DNA of 64,000 bases from Vicinamibacterales bacterium (GCA_963832375.1 CAWHUA010000003.1:206827-270826); one strand, 5' to 3'; counted from the stretch's first letter, positions 58,453-64,000 are shown. Made by a program: numbers and translations. The notes: a model not told the origin generated them from the sequence alone.

Positions 58453-58526
58453 GCGCCCGTAGCTCAGTTGGATAGAGCGACTGGCTTCGAACCAGTAGGC
58501 CGCAGGTTCGAGTCCTGCCGGGCGCA
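58453..58526 (+). tRNA. tRNA-Arg (anticodon TCG), CCA not encoded
   Basis: Manual fold: acceptor GCGCCCG/CGGGCGC, D arm GCTC-AGTTGGATA-GAGC, anticodon arm ACTGG-CTTCGAA-CCAGT, T arm GCAGG-TTCGAGT-CCTGC, discriminator A. Confidence 0.9.
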
Positions 58527-58673
58527 CTTAATGTGAATCTGGAAGTAAAAGTGGAAAGTTGAAAAGTAAAAAGGCGAAAGTGAAAAGGAAAAGGTAAGAT
58601 TAACTTCTTACTTCACTTTTCACTTTCTACTTTCTACTTTTTACTCTTTACTTTTTACTTTCGAGTCCCACCC
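58527..58673. repeat. purine-word / pyrimidine-word long imperfect hairpin between the two tRNA-Arg genes
   Basis: GGAAGTAAAAGTGGAAAGTTGAAAAGTAAAAAGGCGAAAGTGAAAAGGAAAAGGTAAG, loop attaa, CTTCTTACTTCACTTTTCACTTTCTACTTTCTACTTTTTACTCTTTACTTTTTACTTTC. Confidence 0.8.
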
Positions 58674-58750
58674 GCGCCCGTAGCTCAGCTGGATAGAGCG
58701 ACAGCCTCCGGAGCTGTAGGCCACAGGTTCGAATCCTGTCGGGCGCACCA
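58674..58750 (+). tRNA. tRNA-Arg (anticodon CCG), CCA encoded; integration target
   Basis: Manual fold: acceptor GCGCCCG/CGGGCGC, anticodon arm ACAGC-CTCCGGA-GCTGT, T arm ACAGG-TTCGAAT-CCTGT, ACCA end. Confidence 0.9.
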
Positions 58751-60496
58751 ACCCTTTCTCATCGCCGCCGCCTCGAGCAATCGGCCATAATCGCCCTCGC
58801 CCATCTCCTCCGGTCCAATGTCCTCCGTGCCTGCACGATCGCCTGGGTCCAGCGACGCCGGGCGCGGCGTGGCAATGCCGGTAAACAGTCTGTCGAAGCG
58901 CGTCATCGCCTCGAATTCATACCCGTCAATCTCGCCGCTCACGACATTCCGATGAGGCGTGAAAATGATCCGACCGCGCAGCAGGCGCTGCAGTACCGTG
59001 CGGCCCTGGGTCACCGATGCCCGCAGCAAACGCCGCCATTCCGCGAGGCGGTTCTCTATGAGCGCGGGTGCGAGGCGTGGCAGGGGTCTGAGGCCGCGCA
59101 GGTCCTCGGCAATGGCGATCCTCCGCGTTTCCAATGCGCGCACTTTCGCCACCAGGGACATGGCCTCGCCACCGGTCTCGATGGCGGCCACGAGCCGGGC
59201 GATGCGCGTGGAAATGTCCGCCGCCTCCCGTGCTAACGCCGTTTGCTGTTCCGCCACGTCGTCGCGCTCGGTCAAGCTGATGACCTGATCAATCGCCTCG
59301 GGCGTCAGGGCGTGTTCTTCGATCGCCTGCAGCACCGCTTCGTTCATCGTGTCCAACGGCACGCGCAGCGTATTGGCGCAGGAGCCGTTGTTCCGTCTGC
59401 GGTGACAAATGTAGAAGCTGAACCGGCCTTTCCTCGTGTTGGAATGGTCGATGATGAGGCCGCCGCCGCAGATGCCGCACGTGGCAAGGCCGGCGAGCAG
59501 ATTCTGGGCGGCGTGCTTGGGCGGGCGCCCGGACATACGGCCTGAGGCAAAGCGCATCGTGCGGCCCTCGGCGTCCGTGCGCCGGGCGGCGACGCGCTCC
59601 CAGAGTTCCTTCGTGATAATGCGCAGCTCTTTGACCTCCGTGCGCAGCCATTCCCCTTCTGGTCTTCGCTGCGGGTCGAGCTTGCCCCAGGAGCTTTTCT
59701 TGCGCGTCTTGTTCCAGATGACGACGCCGCGATAGGTCTCGCGCTTGAGCACGTCGCGCACGGTCGACGAGGCCCAGCCCCTATGCGGCAGCAGGCCATC
59801 CTTGCGCAGCGGTGGTTTCGGCTGCGCCGCACCCTCCTGCGTGAGGAGCGTGGCGATCCGTTTGAGGCCATACCCCTCGTCATAGAGCGTGAAGATACGT
59901 TCCACCACGGCAGCCTCGTCTGGGTCGATGACCCGTTCGACGTGCGAGCGTAGGGGGCGGCCGTGGGTATCCACGCCGTTGAACACGTCCTGGTTGCGAT
60001 AGCCGAACACACGCCCGCCGACGACGTAGCCCTTCAGGTGTTTGCTGGTATGCGCTTCGTGCACCTGCTGTGATGACTTTTCGCGGTGCTGCTCGTCGGT
60101 GAACCCCTGCAGGGCACCCATGGCTTTGTCCATGGCGTTTTTCGGCGTGAGGGATTTGCCGTGGGCGTATTCGAAGATTTCCACGCCGGCCTCGGCCAGT
60201 TGCTTGATGGCGTAGTTCGTTTCATACGACTCGCGGCCCAGCCGAGCAAGGTCACGAACGATGAGCACCTGAAAGGGCGCCGTCCGGTGCAGCGCGCCCA
60301 TCATCCTTTGGAATGCCGGTCGTGCCTCAAATTCGGCACCCGAGATCTTGTCATCGATATACACGTGTGTATCGGCCACCGCCCATCCTCGGGCGGTGGC
60401 AAAGGCACGTGCGCCTTCCTCCTGTTGCGTGACCGAGAGGGCTTTCGCACGGCCCTTCTGCTCGGTGGATTTTCTCGCGTAGATGGCAGCAATCAT
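58685..60496 (-). CDS. large serine recombinase (integrase candidate)
   Basis: N-terminal resolvase catalytic motif IAAIYARKSTEQ, recombinase domain, zinc-ribbon CGICGGGL...FYICHRRRNNGSC, coiled-coil region. The last 22 codons (GWCARQDSNLWPTAPEAVALSS) are antisense tRNA-Arg. Confidence 0.9.
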   Translation of the reverse strand: MIAAIYARKSTEQKGRAKALSVTQQEEGARAFATARGWAVADTHVYIDDKISGAEFEARPAFQRMMGALHRTAPFQVLIVRDLARLGRESYETNYAIKQLAEAGVEIFEYAHGKSLTPKNAMDKAMGALQGFTDEQHREKSSQQVHEAHTSKHLKGYVVGGRVFGYRNQDVFNGVDTHGRPLRSHVERVIDPDEAAVVERIFTLYDEGYGLKRIATLLTQEGAAQPKPPLRKDGLLPHRGWASSTVRDVLKRETYRGVVIWNKTRKKSSWGKLDPQRRPEGEWLRTEVKELRIITKELWERVAARRTDAEGRTMRFASGRMSGRPPKHAAQNLLAGLATCGICGGGLIIDHSNTRKGRFSFYICHRRRNNGSCANTLRVPLDTMNEAVLQAIEEHALTPEAIDQVISLTERDDVAEQQTALAREAADISTRIARLVAAIETGGEAMSLVAKVRALETRRIAIAEDLRGLRPLPRLAPALIENRLAEWRRLLRASVTQGRTVLQRLLRGRIIFTPHRNVVSGEIDGYEFEAMTRFDRLFTGIATPRPASLDPGDRAGTEDIGPEEMGEGDYGRLLEAAAMRKGWCARQDSNLWPTAPEAVALSS

Positions 60497-60950
60497 TTCT
60501 TTCTCCGCTTCGCCTCAGGTGTGGCCGTCGTCGCCGTCTGGGCCGCCGGTGCGGCGGCCAATTTCGCTTTCATCGCCGCAATCCGCTGCTCCAATTTCGC
60601 CAATTTCTCGGCCTCGGTCGGCTTCGGCAAGGAGGCGATCCGCGCCTTGCGCTCCTCCTGGGTTTCGGGCGTAGCGAAGGTGCCCTTGAGGGTGAGCGTC
60701 GCCGGCACCGCGTCCTTCGCAAACAAGGACCTCCGGAATTGCACCGTGCCACGGCGCCCGTCGATCGTGAAAAATACCAGCCGTTCCCGAAGAAACCAGT
60801 GCCCGCGAGTGAAAACAGTGGAACGAGCAAATACGCGCGCCCGATCTCCGGCACCTCCTTGGTCCGCACCGTGCGTGTGCTGGTGCCCTCAACGAGAGCG
60901 CAGCCGACCTGCGGCAACCAGCAGAGCGGAATCGAGACAACGGCAGTCAT
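60493..60950 (-). CDS. small element-encoded protein (hydrophobic N-terminus, Lys/Ala-rich coiled C-terminus); frame probably broken at the A5 run 60770-60774
   Basis: The ATG at 60950 overlaps the upstream stop (ATGA) and the stop overlaps the recombinase ATG. ORFs 60570..60950 and 60493..60744 fuse as ...GFFGNGWYFFTIDGRRGTVQFRRSLFAKD... if T5 were T6. Confidence 0.5.
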
Positions 60951-61951
60951 TTCTTGACCATCCCGAGTTGCCGACGTGCATCTGCGACGACGCTAGCATC
61001 GACGCTGCTGCCAATGAAAAACCATCCGAATTCCAGGGCGGCGAGTGCCGTTCCGATTGTCAGAAACGGATCGCACACGAGCTCCCCCGGTCCGGCCAAT
61101 GTTTGACCGAAATACTCCTCACAGCTTTCGTAAGGACGAAGAAGCGTGACGCCGGGTTTGGTGCGAGCGCGCGCTTTCGCCCGATTGAGGGCGTCGTCGT
61201 CGTGACAAAACACCAAGCACAGCCTGTTGTTGCGTATGTGCCCCTCGCGATACGTCATGTGCTCGCAGAGCCGCTGCATCACCTCGGGTAGGTAGGGCGT
61301 ATGCACCGCGACGACGACGAGCGGCACGCCGCTGCAGGCGCGGGCGAGCTCGGAAAATGCCGGGAGATGGTCACGCGAGCGGGGCAGCTCGGTGATAACG
61401 GCAGCGGGCCTGATGCCCGACGCAAACAGGTCGGCACAGGAGCAGACGTGAAGATCGATTGCCGCAGAGCCACCGTCGCGGTCAAGGAGCGCCTTGAGAT
61501 TGGCGGCGCGCTTCATGCGGGCCAGCGCCCCCGAAAGAGAGCTTTGACCGTCGCGGACGTTGTGAAACAGTTCCGGCGGTAAATCGTAGATATGCTGCGC
61601 GAGGCTCGAGATTTTCTTCGTGAGCCCGAGGTCGGCCAGCGTTTCTACCGGTACCAAATGGGGACCGGTAGAATGCTGATACGGTTGGCCGCCAACGGCC
61701 CTCGTCGTCTCCCTGAGGAATCCGCCGAGCCGACGAAGAGCCTCCGTGGTAATGGCGCGCGCCCTCTGCATCACCTCCCGACCGAGCTTCTGCTCCCGTG
61801 CATAGACTCGCAGCGCCTTCGCTGCCGCATAGATGTGCGTCACCTCGTGTAAGGTTTTTGCATGCGCCAGACAGTGATTAGCCTCTTCGAGCTTCAGCAT
61901 GACTGTGGCGCTCGACGTGTCCACAGGTCGCAGCGCCGCGACCGGAGTCAT
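60947..61951 (-). CDS. DNA methyltransferase-like protein with degenerate catalytic and SAM-binding motifs
   Basis: Beta-class N6/N4-MTase layout. The position of DPPY reads AAVITELPRS. The position of DPFxGSGTTxxAAxxLGRxxIGxE reads VCDPFLTIGTALAALEFGWFFIGSS. Helical N-terminal region (KTLHEVTHIYAAAKALRVYAREQKLGREV). Confidence 0.6.
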   Translation of the reverse strand: MTPVAALRPVDTSSATVMLKLEEANHCLAHAKTLHEVTHIYAAAKALRVYAREQKLGREVMQRARAITTEALRRLGGFLRETTRAVGGQPYQHSTGPHLVPVETLADLGLTKKISSLAQHIYDLPPELFHNVRDGQSSLSGALARMKRAANLKALLDRDGGSAAIDLHVCSCADLFASGIRPAAVITELPRSRDHLPAFSELARACSGVPLVVVAVHTPYLPEVMQRLCEHMTYREGHIRNNRLCLVFCHDDDALNRAKARARTKPGVTLLRPYESCEEYFGQTLAGPGELVCDPFLTIGTALAALEFGWFFIGSSVDASVVADARRQLGMVKK

Positions 61952-62142
61952 GGCTCCAACTCCTGCAGGAGTTCCGAAGGCGCGACACCGAGCACGGCCG
62001 CGAGGCGCTGCAATTCCCGAGGAGTCGGAATGTGCCGACCGCGCTCAACAAGACAGACCTTTTCCTGATTCATGCGGGCAAGGGCAGCGAGGCGGGGTTG
62101 AGTGAGATTGAGTTTGGTGCGTCGGTCTTTGATACGCAGCAC
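61948..62142 (-). CDS. XRE-family helix-turn-helix transcriptional regulator
   Basis: 64 aa; LNLTQPRLAALARMNQEKVCLVERGRHIPTPRELQRLAAVLGV HTH pattern; stop overlaps the next ATG. Confidence 0.8.
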   Translation of the reverse strand: MLRIKDRRTKLNLTQPRLAALARMNQEKVCLVERGRHIPTPRELQRLAAVLGVAPSELLQELEP

Positions 62143-62192
62143 GCGAAAACCTCCGTTCGCCAGAGATGGCGAATGAAAAAGCTGGTTTTCGC
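62143..62192. promoter_or_regulatory. nested palindromes immediately upstream of the XRE gene (candidate operator)
   Basis: Outer pair GCGAAAACC (62143-51) / GGTTTTCGC (62184-92). Inner pair TTCGCCA (62156-62), spacer gaga, TGGCGAA (62167-73). Confidence 0.4.
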
Positions 62193-62464
62193 GCAGTCGT
62201 GGGGCTTAGGAAGCGCTTATGTCGGGCCGACCGCTATTTCTAATCCCCCCCTGACGAGCAGCAGTGTCTGCGCTCGCGAGGTCGAGCCCCTAGTCGTTCA
62301 TTGTGGCGAACGAACTTTTTCGAGTATCGCTATGGGCGCGGCCGGAGTTCAAGGGAAATCTGAAAATCGTTTTGGATAAAAGGTACGCAAGCGAAGCAAC
62401 GTGGCGAAAGTATGCTTATTCTTTCTGGAATAGTGCTACCCAAAAGGCTCACTAAAGAGCTGCG

Positions 62465-62671
62465 TTACTTCTTCGGCGTTTTCAGCAGTTCCCACACATA
62501 CTCGCACTCCGTGCACACGCAGGAGAGTGGGTCCCAACTTCGCGCCTTCACGATGACCGTCATCGTAGAACCGCAGCGCGGACAGTGAGGACAAGGCGTG
62601 ACGTGCTCCGGGGACTTCGACAAGCCGGCAACACTAGCACAGATATGCGCCAGCAATAACCGCGAATGCAC
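62465..62671 (-). CDS. small zinc-ribbon protein (element-borne paralog of the CxxC...CxxCxxxW family)
   Basis: 68 aa; CPHCPRCG-x19-CVCTECEYVW. Confidence 0.45.
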   Translation of the reverse strand: MHSRLLLAHICASVAGLSKSPEHVTPCPHCPRCGSTMTVIVKARSWDPLSCVCTECEYVWELLKTPKK

Positions 62672-62719
62672 CGTATGTATTGGACTTAGACACCCTCGAA
62701 GCCGCGCGGCGCCCGAGGT

Positions 62720-62899
62720 TTAGTCTGTGCGTTTCGGTTTATCACGCTCAACGGCGCGCCTCGTACCCACCGCGTCAACGACTACCACCACAATTTTTGA
62801 CGCAGCGATAATCCTGAGCTCGGCAGACTCGCGCCGACACTGCGCAAGCATCCGCTCGACGCGGGCAAGTCGTTCTTCGTCGTGATCGGATTCAACCAT
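62720..62899 (-). CDS. possible 59-aa protein
   Basis: Hand-translated ORF below the track threshold: MVESDHDEERLARVERMLAQCRRESAELRIIAASKIVVVVVDAVGTRRAVERDKPKRTD. No clear Shine-Dalgarno. Confidence 0.25.
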   Translation of the reverse strand: MVESDHDEERLARVERMLAQCRRESAELRIIAASKIVVVVVDAVGTRRAVERDKPKRTD

Positions 62900-63219
62900 G
62901 GGGAGAGAACCAATTAGCAGGATAAAGCGGCTGCGTCACAGACGCTGTAACATTTTGCACACCCGCGTATGTATTTGTGCTTTCACATAGTTGCACTCCA
63001 CATCAGAAAATCCAGGCAACAAATAAAAGGTGGACGGGGACACAAAACCCAGGGGGCGGCTAGGCGGTGCCGGGCCCGGGCCATGCGGCCATCGCGCGGG
63101 CGTTCGCCATTCGTGGGGCATCCTCGCGCCCCGCCGGGGCTATCGCGGCGCCGCCGCTAGGCCGCGCCGGGGAGGCGAATCCGGCCGGCCATCGGCCGCG
63201 CGAAATGATGCGAGCCCGT

Positions 63220-63234
63220 TCGGGCGCACCAACC
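63220..63234. repeat. right-end direct repeat (displaced tRNA-Arg 3' fragment)
   Basis: TCGGGCGCACCAACC, identical to 58739-58753. Confidence 0.8.
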
Positions 63235-63258
63235 TTCGCTCATGAATGTACGCGAAGG
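63233..63258 (+). terminator. hairpin that would terminate the uninterrupted tRNA-Arg(CCG)
   Basis: CCTTCGC, 12-nt loop, GCGAAGG, followed by TTGTTG. Confidence 0.45.
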
Positions 63259-63308
63259 TTGTTGCGCCGGAGCGGCAAAGCCGCGAAGGCGGACCACACA
63301 CTACCTCC

Positions 63309-64000
63309 CTATCCCCGTCCTATAAACGGCATCTTCGTCGCCATCACGGTGATGAACTGCACGTTCACGTCGAGCGGCAGGTTGGCCATGTAGAGCACGG
63401 CGCGCGCCACGTGCTCGGGATCGATCGTCGGTTCGGGAACGATCGCCCCGTGCGCCTGCAGGACGCCTGCCTTCATTGCCTCGGCCAGTGGAGTCGCGGC
63501 GTTGCCGATGTCGATCTGTCCGCAGGCGATCTCGTACTGCCGGCCGTCGAGCGACGTCGATTTGGTCAGGCCCGTGATGGCGTGCTTCGTTGACGTGTAG
63601 GGCGCGGAGTGCGGCCGCGGCGCGTGCGCGGAAAGGGATCCGTTGTTGATGATGCGGCCGCCGCGCGGGTCTTGCGCCTTCATCATCCGGAACGCTCCCT
63701 GCGTGCACAGAAACGCTCCGGTCAAATTTACATCGACGACCGCCTTCCATTGTTCGAGCGGCAGGTCCTCGAGCGGCACCCGCGGTGCCGTCAGTCCGGC
63801 GTTGTTGAACAGCACATCGAGCCGGCCGAAACTGTCGTGCGTTGCGGTGAAGAGCGCGGCCACCGAGGCGGGATCCGCGACGTCTGTGGGCACGACGACC
63901 GCTTTCGATCCGGGCGGTGCCTCCCGCGCAGTGTCTTCGAGCGGCTGACGGCGGCGGCCGGCCAGGACGACGCCGTAGCCGTCGCGCAGGAAAGCCAGCG
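63309..64000 (-). CDS. short-chain dehydrogenase/reductase (SDR) family oxidoreductase, 5' end outside window
   Basis: Frame stays open to base 64000 (...[43 protein letters not shown]). Contains NNAG, the catalytic S...YxxxK region ([13 protein letters not shown]) and an IACGQIDIG motif. Confidence 0.85.

Follow-up and report, generated by a model that had tools for sequence, protein, structure and literature searches.

A 64,000-nucleotide stretch of a Vicinamibacterales genome (GCA_963832375.1, CAWHUA010000003.1:206827-270826; referred to here, at its full length, as the window) carries a 4481-bp integrative element (58754-63234, counting one repeat copy) at the 3′ end of a tRNA-Arg(CCG) gene. 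The element very probably (estimated probability, about 0.88) entered this site by site-specific recombination through its own large serine recombinase (LSR), and it is a reduced member of a large family from Acidobacteriota, mostly Vicinamibacterales. Insertion into tRNA 3′ ends with long direct repeats has been tied to tyrosine integrases, whereas serine integrases are associated with sites inside dispensable genes and minimal identity between the recombining sequences (PMC5704250, PMC4701971, PMC10654092). An initial annotation of the window had proposed an integrative element at this tRNA and judged a serine recombinase in such a position to be unusual. The first proposal is borne out by empty sites in relatives, flanking repeats, and a regenerated tRNA; the second is also correct, in that serine recombinases at tRNA genes are rare, with reported precedents in phiRSM and Pami6.

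Precise insertion at tRNA-Arg(CCG)

The boundaries of the element are formed by a perfect 15-bp repeat, TCGGGCGCACCAACC, and the positions given for it in the initial annotation (58739-58753 and 63220-63234) proved to be exact. A search of the 64-kb window found these two exact copies only, with a start-to-start spacing of 4481 bp, so that the 15-mer is not a common dispersed motif. Copy 1 lies in the 3′ end of tRNA-Arg(CCG), as located by ARAGORN and Rfam, and comprises the last T-stem base, the 7-nt acceptor 3′ strand, the discriminator A, CCA, and the trailer bases ACC. Around the perfect block, the two junctions resemble each other over 33 nt in all, at 79% identity (58730-58762 versus 63211-63243).

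Contigs from three relatives (L058, L059, and L060) were reached via orthologues of the convergent SDR gene in the right flank (91-96% identical overall; 91-94% for the SDR proteins of these three contigs). In 3/3, tRNA-Arg(CCG) leads directly to a hairpin and then to the SDR gene, with the 4481 bp missing, which is the empty junction that the initial annotation had suggested looking for. The gene order in L059 and L060 is SDR, hairpin, tRNA-Arg(CCG), tRNA-Arg(TCG), a 555-aa membrane protein, and argG, and the element is absent. When 58754-63234 is removed from the window, the remainder aligns colinearly with all three contigs; flank identity to L060 is 91.6% over 3259 bp and 93% over 690 bp, and housekeeping DNA syntenic with L059 occupies the 18 kb left of the element. 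No match to the element DNA was obtained by blastn against the three contigs. Since the relatives share this synteny without the 4481 bp, the window carries a precise insertion, and tRNA-Arg(CCG) is the site of an insertion polymorphism. The tRNA-Arg(CCG) sequence is the same in the window and in the unoccupied L058, L059, and L060 (four genomes) and was therefore perfectly regenerated by integration; it is still intact because the element brings its own copy of the 3′ end.

The native sequence downstream of the tRNA has been displaced to the far end of the element. In L060, CCCTTCGCTCATGAATGCACGCGAAGGG directly follows tRNA-Arg(CCG) and corresponds nearly base for base to the window sequence after the second repeat copy. 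The hairpin at 63233-63258 (inner stem, CCTTCGC/GCGAAGG) is thus the displaced native trailer hairpin of the tRNA. It had been described as the original tRNA terminator; its origin and displacement hold, while its function as a terminator found no backing in a promoter/terminator scan, which did not call the hairpin and performed no better than on its own shuffles. Downstream of tRNA-Arg(CCG), the relatives have two hairpins of the CCTTCGCTCATGAATG...GCGAAGG type, ~110 bp apart (L058 10800-10930, L059, and L060). The window has one such hairpin only (63235-63310), which best matches the distal copy of L058; either ~110 bp was deleted there or the ancestral site was different.

Large serine recombinase, attachment sites, and family

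The 603-aa protein that had been recognized as a large serine recombinase matched, in profile searches, Resolvase (PF00239, E = 5.5e-21), Recombinase (PF07508, E = 7e-22), and Zn_ribbon_recom (PF13408, E = 5e-11), as well as the PHROG integrase family phrog_95. Catalytic Ser10 (motif IYARKST) and the zinc-ribbon residues C340, C343, C364, and C373 are invariant across 30 relatives, and Arg8 is nearly so. An AlphaFold2 (AF2) model comprises an N-terminal domain (NTD), recombinase domain (RD), zinc-ribbon domain (ZD), and coiled coil, with a long helical pair (412-441/445-468) after the zinc ribbon; past the coiled coil it continues with additional helices and a beta hairpin, as far as residue 529, and then a disordered tail. 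The top Foldseek matches of this model were full-length serine integrase-att complexes, including Bxb1 and PhiC31, with E values down to 4e-24. Identity to cultured-phage integrases is at most 28% and covers residues 3-465 only, and an extra conserved C-terminal region reaches approximately residue 575. The protein is 100% identical to database entry P0001. Domain order, invariant residues, structure, and attachment (att) site features show that it is a large serine recombinase. Consistent with the initial annotation, no tyrosine recombinase was found, as judged by Phage_integrase (Pfam) matches, in any open reading frame (ORF) of the element or in the 18 kb to its left.

The recombinase gene had been placed between the repeats. 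This is true of most of it, except that its last 23 codons (58753 downward) cross the repeat and consist of the att core and antisense tRNA, with the stop codon within the tRNA D-arm; the C-terminal residues KGWCARQDSNLWPTAPEAVALSS are accordingly a translation of the antisense tRNA. When the element ends are joined (60496..58739, then 63219 downward), a 606-aa ORF ending in ...KGWCARTGSHHFARPMAGRIRLPGAA is obtained, with a free-form tail of ...TGSHHFARPMAGRIRLPGAA-stop (PGAA-stop; stop codon at 63157-63159) and a third-codon-position GC content (GC3) of 0.85 over the 21-codon tail. The encoded C-terminus therefore differs between the free and integrated forms. The junction ORFs of four other elements (L017, L024, L050, and L085) also end in Ala-Ala-stop, ~20 codons past the core, and among 40 homologues without a tRNA tail, the last two residues are AA in 17 and VA or PA in another 4, compared with an AA ending in 1 of 167 unrelated proteins. 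Different codons are used for Ala and for the stop (GCC GCG TAG, GCA GCC TGA, and GCG GCG TAA), and the tails contain recurring sub-motifs (..LVGSxxRRAA and ..RxWxxx..G(F)xxxAA). The conserved free-form ending independently validates the inferred element boundaries. In distant, phage-borne relatives, strong palindromes precede the stop codon of int by 52-94 nt. The swapped tail of ~20 residues is predicted by AF2 to be disordered, and an Ala-Ala carboxy-terminus is a hallmark of ssrA-like ClpXP degradation signals.

To locate the crossover, attP/attB pairs were reconstructed for 12 elements and dyad symmetry was scanned at every possible center. In 12/12, identity begins in the T-stem 3′ strand or at its junction, covers the acceptor 3′ strand, and usually reaches CCA; in the tRNA-Glu elements, the acceptor 3′ strand is the sole segment common to all identity blocks. 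One sharp dyad peak, the same in attP and attB, falls on the last T-stem base and the first acceptor-strand base (tRNA positions 65/66). Symmetry at this peak is 11.75/22 for attP, versus 5.76 ± 0.61 for shuffled arms (maximum, 7.58 in 2000 shuffles), and 9.08/22 for attB, versus 5.67 ± 0.57. The symmetric positions cluster 2-5 and 13-16 from the center, with a consensus of AAAGGG, ~10 nt, NN, ~10 nt, and CCCTTT. As seen in LSR-DNA complexes, two recognition blocks per half-site are typical of LSR sites, the polarity of which needs a nonpalindromic central dinucleotide. Among the 12 pairs, the central dinucleotide is never palindromic (TC, CC, GT, TT, or CT) and is the same in attP and attB in 11. 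In the window element, the putative crossover dinucleotide is TC, the first two bases of the 15-bp repeat. Another dyad axis, the TTCG...CGAA pairing 3-4 bp further 3′, was dropped, as it is not common to the elements. The length of the repeat can be explained by tRNA survival, which needs the element to carry a faithful copy of everything 3′ of the cut; the long repeat would then reflect selection for tRNA function rather than a homology requirement of the tyrosine type, 2 bp of identity probably being enough for the chemistry.

The same arrangement extends to a family of related recombinases. Among ~1000 LSR homologues, the best 120 (53-69% identity) were used for a count of C-termini, 80 of which correspond to a reverse-translated tRNA T-arm peptide (e.g., ...ASPTGFEPVFWP, ...WCALQDSNLRPPGS, ...WRPWRDSNPRSSP, and ...CARRESNPRPTGSKPVALSS); among the homologues, the tRNA target classes number at least six. 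A scan at one genome per species yielded 57 genomic loci, nearly all from metagenome-assembled genomes of Acidobacteriota/Vicinamibacterales, and 33 of these have an opposite-strand tRNA that adjoins or overlaps the LSR 3′ end (25 tRNA-Glu(TTC), 6 tRNA-Arg(TCG), and 2 tRNA-Arg(ACG)). Loci with enough upstream DNA have a 12-17-bp direct repeat of the tRNA 3′ end 2-11 kb upstream. The geometry recurs in more distant relatives (32-42% identity) on viral contigs, with either a 3′-end tRNA (L065 and L068) or a free-form ending. Linkage to tRNA 3′ ends is a family-wide property of this LSR clade. After the att-encoded LSR tails were trimmed, the nearest LSR neighbor was of the same target class in 60/75 cases (permutation mean, 22.5; maximum, 37). 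Mean LSR identities within target classes (0.61-0.65) and between them (0.58-0.63) are so close that enzymes of near kinship seem to have changed targets repeatedly. At many family loci, a C-terminal LSR fragment lies beside the tRNA, often enough to indicate that decay is common in the family.

A broader interpretation, which is tentative and on balance doubtful, is that the clade uses the tRNA T-arm, acceptor, and CCA as attB and hops between tRNAs with little change in the protein, while an attP ~20 codons before the stop codon would act as a built-in switch by which the state of the element sets how stable or active the integrase is, e.g., through an Ala-Ala degradation signal that is present in the free form and replaced in the integrated form by an arbitrary tail of antisense tRNA.

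The tRNA-Arg(TCG)/tRNA-Arg(CCG) pair itself is a hot spot for the LSR family. While tRNA-Arg(CCG) is unoccupied in L058, the neighboring tRNA-Arg(TCG) of that contig carries a different insertion, the attR of which reads ...cggccgtCCCGGGCGCACCAACCttcgtagtcg. In addition to this insertion (L058 11007-13490), tRNA-Arg(TCG) is the occupied site in L085 (1013-11808), L003, L029, and L048; the elements most closely related to that of the window thus use it as their target in other genomes, and tRNA-Arg(CCG) sometimes lies just ~100 bp past the attR of such insertions. The two tRNAs differ at two positions in the T-arm/acceptor region, and the window element appears to have moved its target to the paralogous tRNA-Arg(CCG).

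Several family loci depart from the simple arrangement. Two or more att cores or partial tRNA copies occur serially in L004 (11713-11860), L007 (1686-1800), L040 (4061 and 5096), and L016 (10900-10940), a pattern indicative of tandem arrays, or of family members that integrated one after another at the same tRNA and decayed. A tRNA-Ser(GCT) gene is located inside the 10.7-kb LSR element of L085 (9884-9972), just upstream of the LSR start codon. In L086 (10001-11812), a full-length LSR with the tRNA-Glu-like core CGTCCCCACCGGGATTCG lacks both a flanking repeat and any tRNA in the 10 kb to each side, a state that could be due to a secondary site, a rearrangement, or something else. Contig CBDCGH010000002.1 (33,146 bp; the source of both L008 and L020) has a direct repeat of 13,024 bp (99.9% identity) at its ends, the period being 20,122 bp; it encodes a family LSR with a tRNA-Glu-like core but no tRNA, together with several insertion sequence transposases, and may represent an episomal circle assembled over more than one unit length, a tandem duplication or array, or an artifact.

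Proposed integration mechanism and alternative explanations

In the proposed mechanism, LSR dimers would bind the quasi-palindromic attP of the circular element, which would lie within the last ~25 int codons, and an attB made up of the tRNA T-arm, acceptor 3′ strand, CCA, and ~12 nt of trailer. Following attP/attB synapsis, all four strands would be cut at the 2-bp nonpalindromic center (putatively TC, at the T-stem/acceptor junction) and exchanged through subunit rotation. The acceptor strand and CCA 3′ of the cut would thereby be swapped for the identical element-borne copy, which would explain both the long identity block and the intact tRNA, while the native 3′ end and trailer hairpin would be shifted 4.5 kb to attR. 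At the same time, the integrase C-terminus would be exchanged, from the circular ...PGAA-stop to the integrated antisense reading into the tRNA. The exact cut site, present-day activity, a need for a directionality factor, and any role for the tail swap are conjectural in this scheme.

The textbook link between tyrosine integrases and tRNA 3′ ends with long direct repeats (PMC5704250, PMC4701971, PMC10654092) raises the question of whether such an enzyme, acting in trans, made the insertion, with the serine recombinase being cargo, e.g., a resolvase or invertase. The closest homologues of the methyltransferase-like gene of the element do reside in tyrosine-integrase elements. This explanation is nevertheless very improbable: neither the element nor the 18 kb to its left encodes a tyrosine recombinase; the LSR 3′ end adjoins a tRNA 3′ end in 33 independent loci and in 80/120 homologues; the att sites have LSR-type dyad symmetry around a nonpalindromic dinucleotide; and RD, ZD, and coiled coil are all present in the protein, as in integrases and unlike in a small resolvase. 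It is equally improbable that the 4.5 kb is ancestral and was lost from the relatives by deletion between chance 15-bp repeats, with no mobile element involved. Three relatives alone cannot separate insertion from deletion; however, an exact tRNA and trailer hairpin would need restoring in three lineages, homologous LSR elements occur at other tRNAs with analogous repeats, including tRNA-Arg(TCG) in L058, and the joined element ends recreate a conserved ORF terminus.

A more substantial alternative, though one with the odds somewhat against it, is that the element was integrated by its LSR and is now a defective remnant that no longer excises or spreads alone. Its length of 4.5 kb, versus ~10 kb for intact-looking relatives with Prim-Pol/DUF5906/VapE, the frameshift in one gene, and the lack of catalytic motifs in the methyltransferase-like gene would fit such a history, as would the common decay within the family, with its many LSR C-terminal fragments beside tRNAs, and the fact that metagenome scans found no second copy or circular junction. 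On the other hand, the LSR ORF is full length with all family-invariant residues kept, both 15-bp cores are perfect, the circular-form tail is open and has the Ala-Ala-stop of the family, and the frameshift lies within a homopolymer, so that it may be an assembly error.

Integration of the element by its own LSR remains the preferred explanation, and several observations weigh against it. The trailer differs from that of the relatives by ~110 bp, and the ancestral attB is not fixed base for base. The placement of the crossover derives from symmetry statistics, and one of the 12 att pairs, that of L017, differs at the inferred center. No homologue of a directionality factor was recognized among the element ORFs (Pfam and PHROG). 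The element has no replication or transfer module, one of its genes is frameshifted, and its methyltransferase-like gene is degenerate, losses that suggest that this copy may be immobile. Finally, two exact-match metagenome scans, one for the empty junction and one for the attP/attL junction, had no match at all and so revealed neither a circular junction nor a second copy.

Cargo, genomic neighborhood, and relation to known systems

The features of the element and its surroundings are listed in Table 1. The LSR comes last in an operon with the order Xre-type helix-turn-helix (HTH) regulator, 334-aa protein, frameshifted ~152-aa gene, and LSR. The three genes upstream of the LSR had been described as joined by ATGA stop/start overlaps, and these are present (60493-60496, 60947-60950, and 61948-61951, by ORF coordinates); one of the three, however, consists of two ORF fragments (60570..60950 and 60493..60744). 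GC3 switches frame between these fragments near the A5 run at 60771-60775 (region 60745-60800), and one added base gives a continuous ~152-aa protein, which had no Pfam match. The split reflects either a real frameshift or a long-read homopolymer assembly error, and by its position, the protein is a candidate accessory or directionality factor. The less GC-rich stretch that had been noted was recovered at 62100-63000 (GC, 0.53-0.59, versus ~0.65 elsewhere).

Table 1. Positions of the integrative element, its target, and adjacent features in the window
Feature	Coordinates	Strand	Basis
Neighboring tRNA-Arg(TCG), 87% identical to the target, unoccupied in the window	58453..58527	+	ARAGORN
tRNA-Arg(CCG), target gene	58674..58750	+	ARAGORN; Rfam, 72 bits
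Large serine recombinase, integrated form, 603 aa	58685..60496	-	Pfam, PHROG, AF2, Foldseek
attL core, repeat copy 1	58739..58753	+	Exact-match search; extended att similarity, 58730-58762
Putative crossover dinucleotide TC (tRNA 65/66)	58739..58740; attR counterpart, 63220-63221	+	Dyad peak, 12 pairs
Small gene, ~152 aa, frameshifted, translationally coupled to both neighbors	60493..60950	-	GC3 frame switch
Degenerate N6/N4 DNA methyltransferase relative, 334 aa	60947..61951	-	Homologue comparison
Xre-type HTH regulator, 64 aa, first operon gene	61948..62142	-	Pfam HTH_31/HTH_3; PHROG repressor families
Lower-GC, presumably regulatory stretch	62143..63156	.	GC profile
Small ORF, 68 aa, weak zinc-ribbon match	62465..62671	-	Pfam; 45% identical match beside an LSR fragment in L052
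Small ORF, 59 aa	62720..62899	-	ORF call
Element far end, attP left arm; encodes last 21 free-form LSR codons	63157..63219	-	Joined-end ORF
Native tRNA trailer hairpin	63216..63275	+	Extended 24-nt arms, 88% complementary
attR core, repeat copy 2; displaced native tRNA 3′ end	63220..63234	+	Exact match; relatives
Convergent SDR gene, host flank, cut by window end	63309..64000	-	Pfam; orthologues 91-96% identical

In the 334-aa methyltransferase relative, ELPR stands in place of DPPY and TIGTAL in place of the glycine motif GGGTTA, and part of the interior has been deleted. The homologues nearest to this protein (45-47% identity) are found in the tyrosine-integrase elements L061 (8001-9035) and L062 (8001-9128), in which the order is tyrosine integrase, HTH, AlpA-type excisionase, methyltransferase-like protein, and primase. 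The integration module has thus been swapped between elements that are alike in other respects. Methyltransferase-like proteins of this subfamily, with neither DPPY nor the glycine-rich motif, are found repeatedly in small integrative elements, next to an Xre HTH and an AlpA-type gene. No match to orf334, orf83/126, or orf59 was obtained by tblastn against the 57 related loci, and the cargo is therefore not conserved along with the LSR.

Intact-looking LSR relatives of ~10 kb (L003, L007, and L085) encode a Prim-Pol/DUF5906/VapE primase-helicase, and no structural genes were recognized in these larger elements. In the window element, Pfam and PHROG searches identified no capsid, terminase, primase, or other virion, packaging, or replication gene. 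No relaxase or conjugation module was found among its ORFs by the same searches, although the element may have an origin of transfer (oriT). The element is best described as a reduced, possibly nonautonomous integrative element.

With respect to the host neighborhood, an Rfam scan of the window detected no RNA besides the two tRNAs. The spacer between them (58528-58673) forms an imperfect, low-GC (~0.35-0.5) hairpin with 45-nt arms of AAAGT/GAAAGT repeats. The corresponding spacers in L058-L060 have GTCG/AGTCGCAAG-type repeats instead, and in L043 a GAAAGT hairpin is placed after tRNA-Arg(CCG); these inter-tRNA spacers look like fast-evolving repeat hairpins. A tRNA-Lys(CTT) gene located nearby in relatives is followed by a tyrosine-integrase-like sequence, recognized by eye, in L043 (16900-17920) and by a Phage_integrase fragment in L058 (4006-4419), and would make a third tRNA of this neighborhood the site of a separate island; in the source genome of the window, the matching region falls past the window end.

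Phage-type enzymes are among the closest counterparts of the window LSR. Like Bxb1, PhiC31, Listeria A118/LI integrase, and TP901-1, it has the domain order resolvase, recombinase, and zinc ribbon with coiled coil, and its att sites are likewise short quasi-palindromes with a nonpalindromic central dinucleotide. Unlike these systems, in which a protein gene is disrupted, integration here regenerates a tRNA 3′ end within a 12-17-bp identity block, and attP lies inside the int ORF, so that the C-terminus is changed by integration. Myxophage Mx8 (intP/intX) also has its att site inside int, although Mx8 Int is a tyrosine recombinase and loses ~100 residues on integration, whereas here ~20 residues of a predicted disordered tail are exchanged. 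In streptococcal rumA integrative and conjugative elements, attR is inside the serine integrase gene (PMC4701971), and these elements, Mx8, and the window element thus share an att site within the integrase coding sequence and C-termini that differ between forms.

Precedents for serine recombinases at tRNA genes are individual cases. For phiRSM, attP comprises the 3′ 13 bp of tRNA-Ser(UCG), and integration and excision were shown experimentally (PMC4471427). The phiRSM integrase resembles the window LSR as a serine recombinase using a tRNA 3′ end as its att site; it differs in being a small resolvase/invertase-type enzyme without recombinase or zinc-ribbon domains, in belonging to a betaproteobacterial filamentous phage, and in having an intergenic attP rather than one within int. 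Paracoccus phage vB_PamS_Pami6 encodes a serine recombinase with predicted integration in a tRNA-Met gene (PMC6536676); likened here by description only, it is a single alphaproteobacterial siphovirus for which no family-level pattern was reported. In a Prochlorococcus study, an LSR was present in 27/937 tycheposons and cryptic elements (10.1101/2020.12.28.424599), and a large LSR discovery survey nowhere mentions tRNA (PMC10083194). No account of a large LSR clade dedicated to tRNA 3′ ends with an int-embedded attP was found in the literature consulted, with the proviso that the TIGER/Islander resources may hold cases implicitly and that serine integrases at tRNA genes may have been tabulated before, and such a clade is apparently undescribed.

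The element works like a tRNA island of the tyrosine type without being one. With tyrosine-integrase islands (P4-like; Williams 2002, Islander/TIGER), the element and its LSR relatives share integration into the tRNA 3′ end, an element-borne copy of the displaced segment, an int gene beside the tRNA-proximal junction, tandem or decayed arrays at hot-spot tRNAs, and cargo modules such as the Xre HTH, methyltransferase-like protein, and, in the larger relatives, primase. They differ in that the enzyme and chemistry are unrelated, no arm-type sites are expected, and identity sets in at the T-stem/acceptor junction. The tyrosine-type strategy is thus followed by a large, diverse clade of LSRs, mostly from soil Acidobacteriota, and island finders or LSR catalogues limited to protein-coding targets will miss such elements. 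The family provides a natural experiment in LSR retargeting among similar sites, with many matched attP/attB/enzyme triplets, and LSRs with a conserved, harmless, and regenerated attB are attractive for engineering uncultured-type soil bacteria. In addition, an attP embedded in int, together with the conserved Ala-Ala terminus of the free form, points to a testable route by which the integration state may regulate the integrase.

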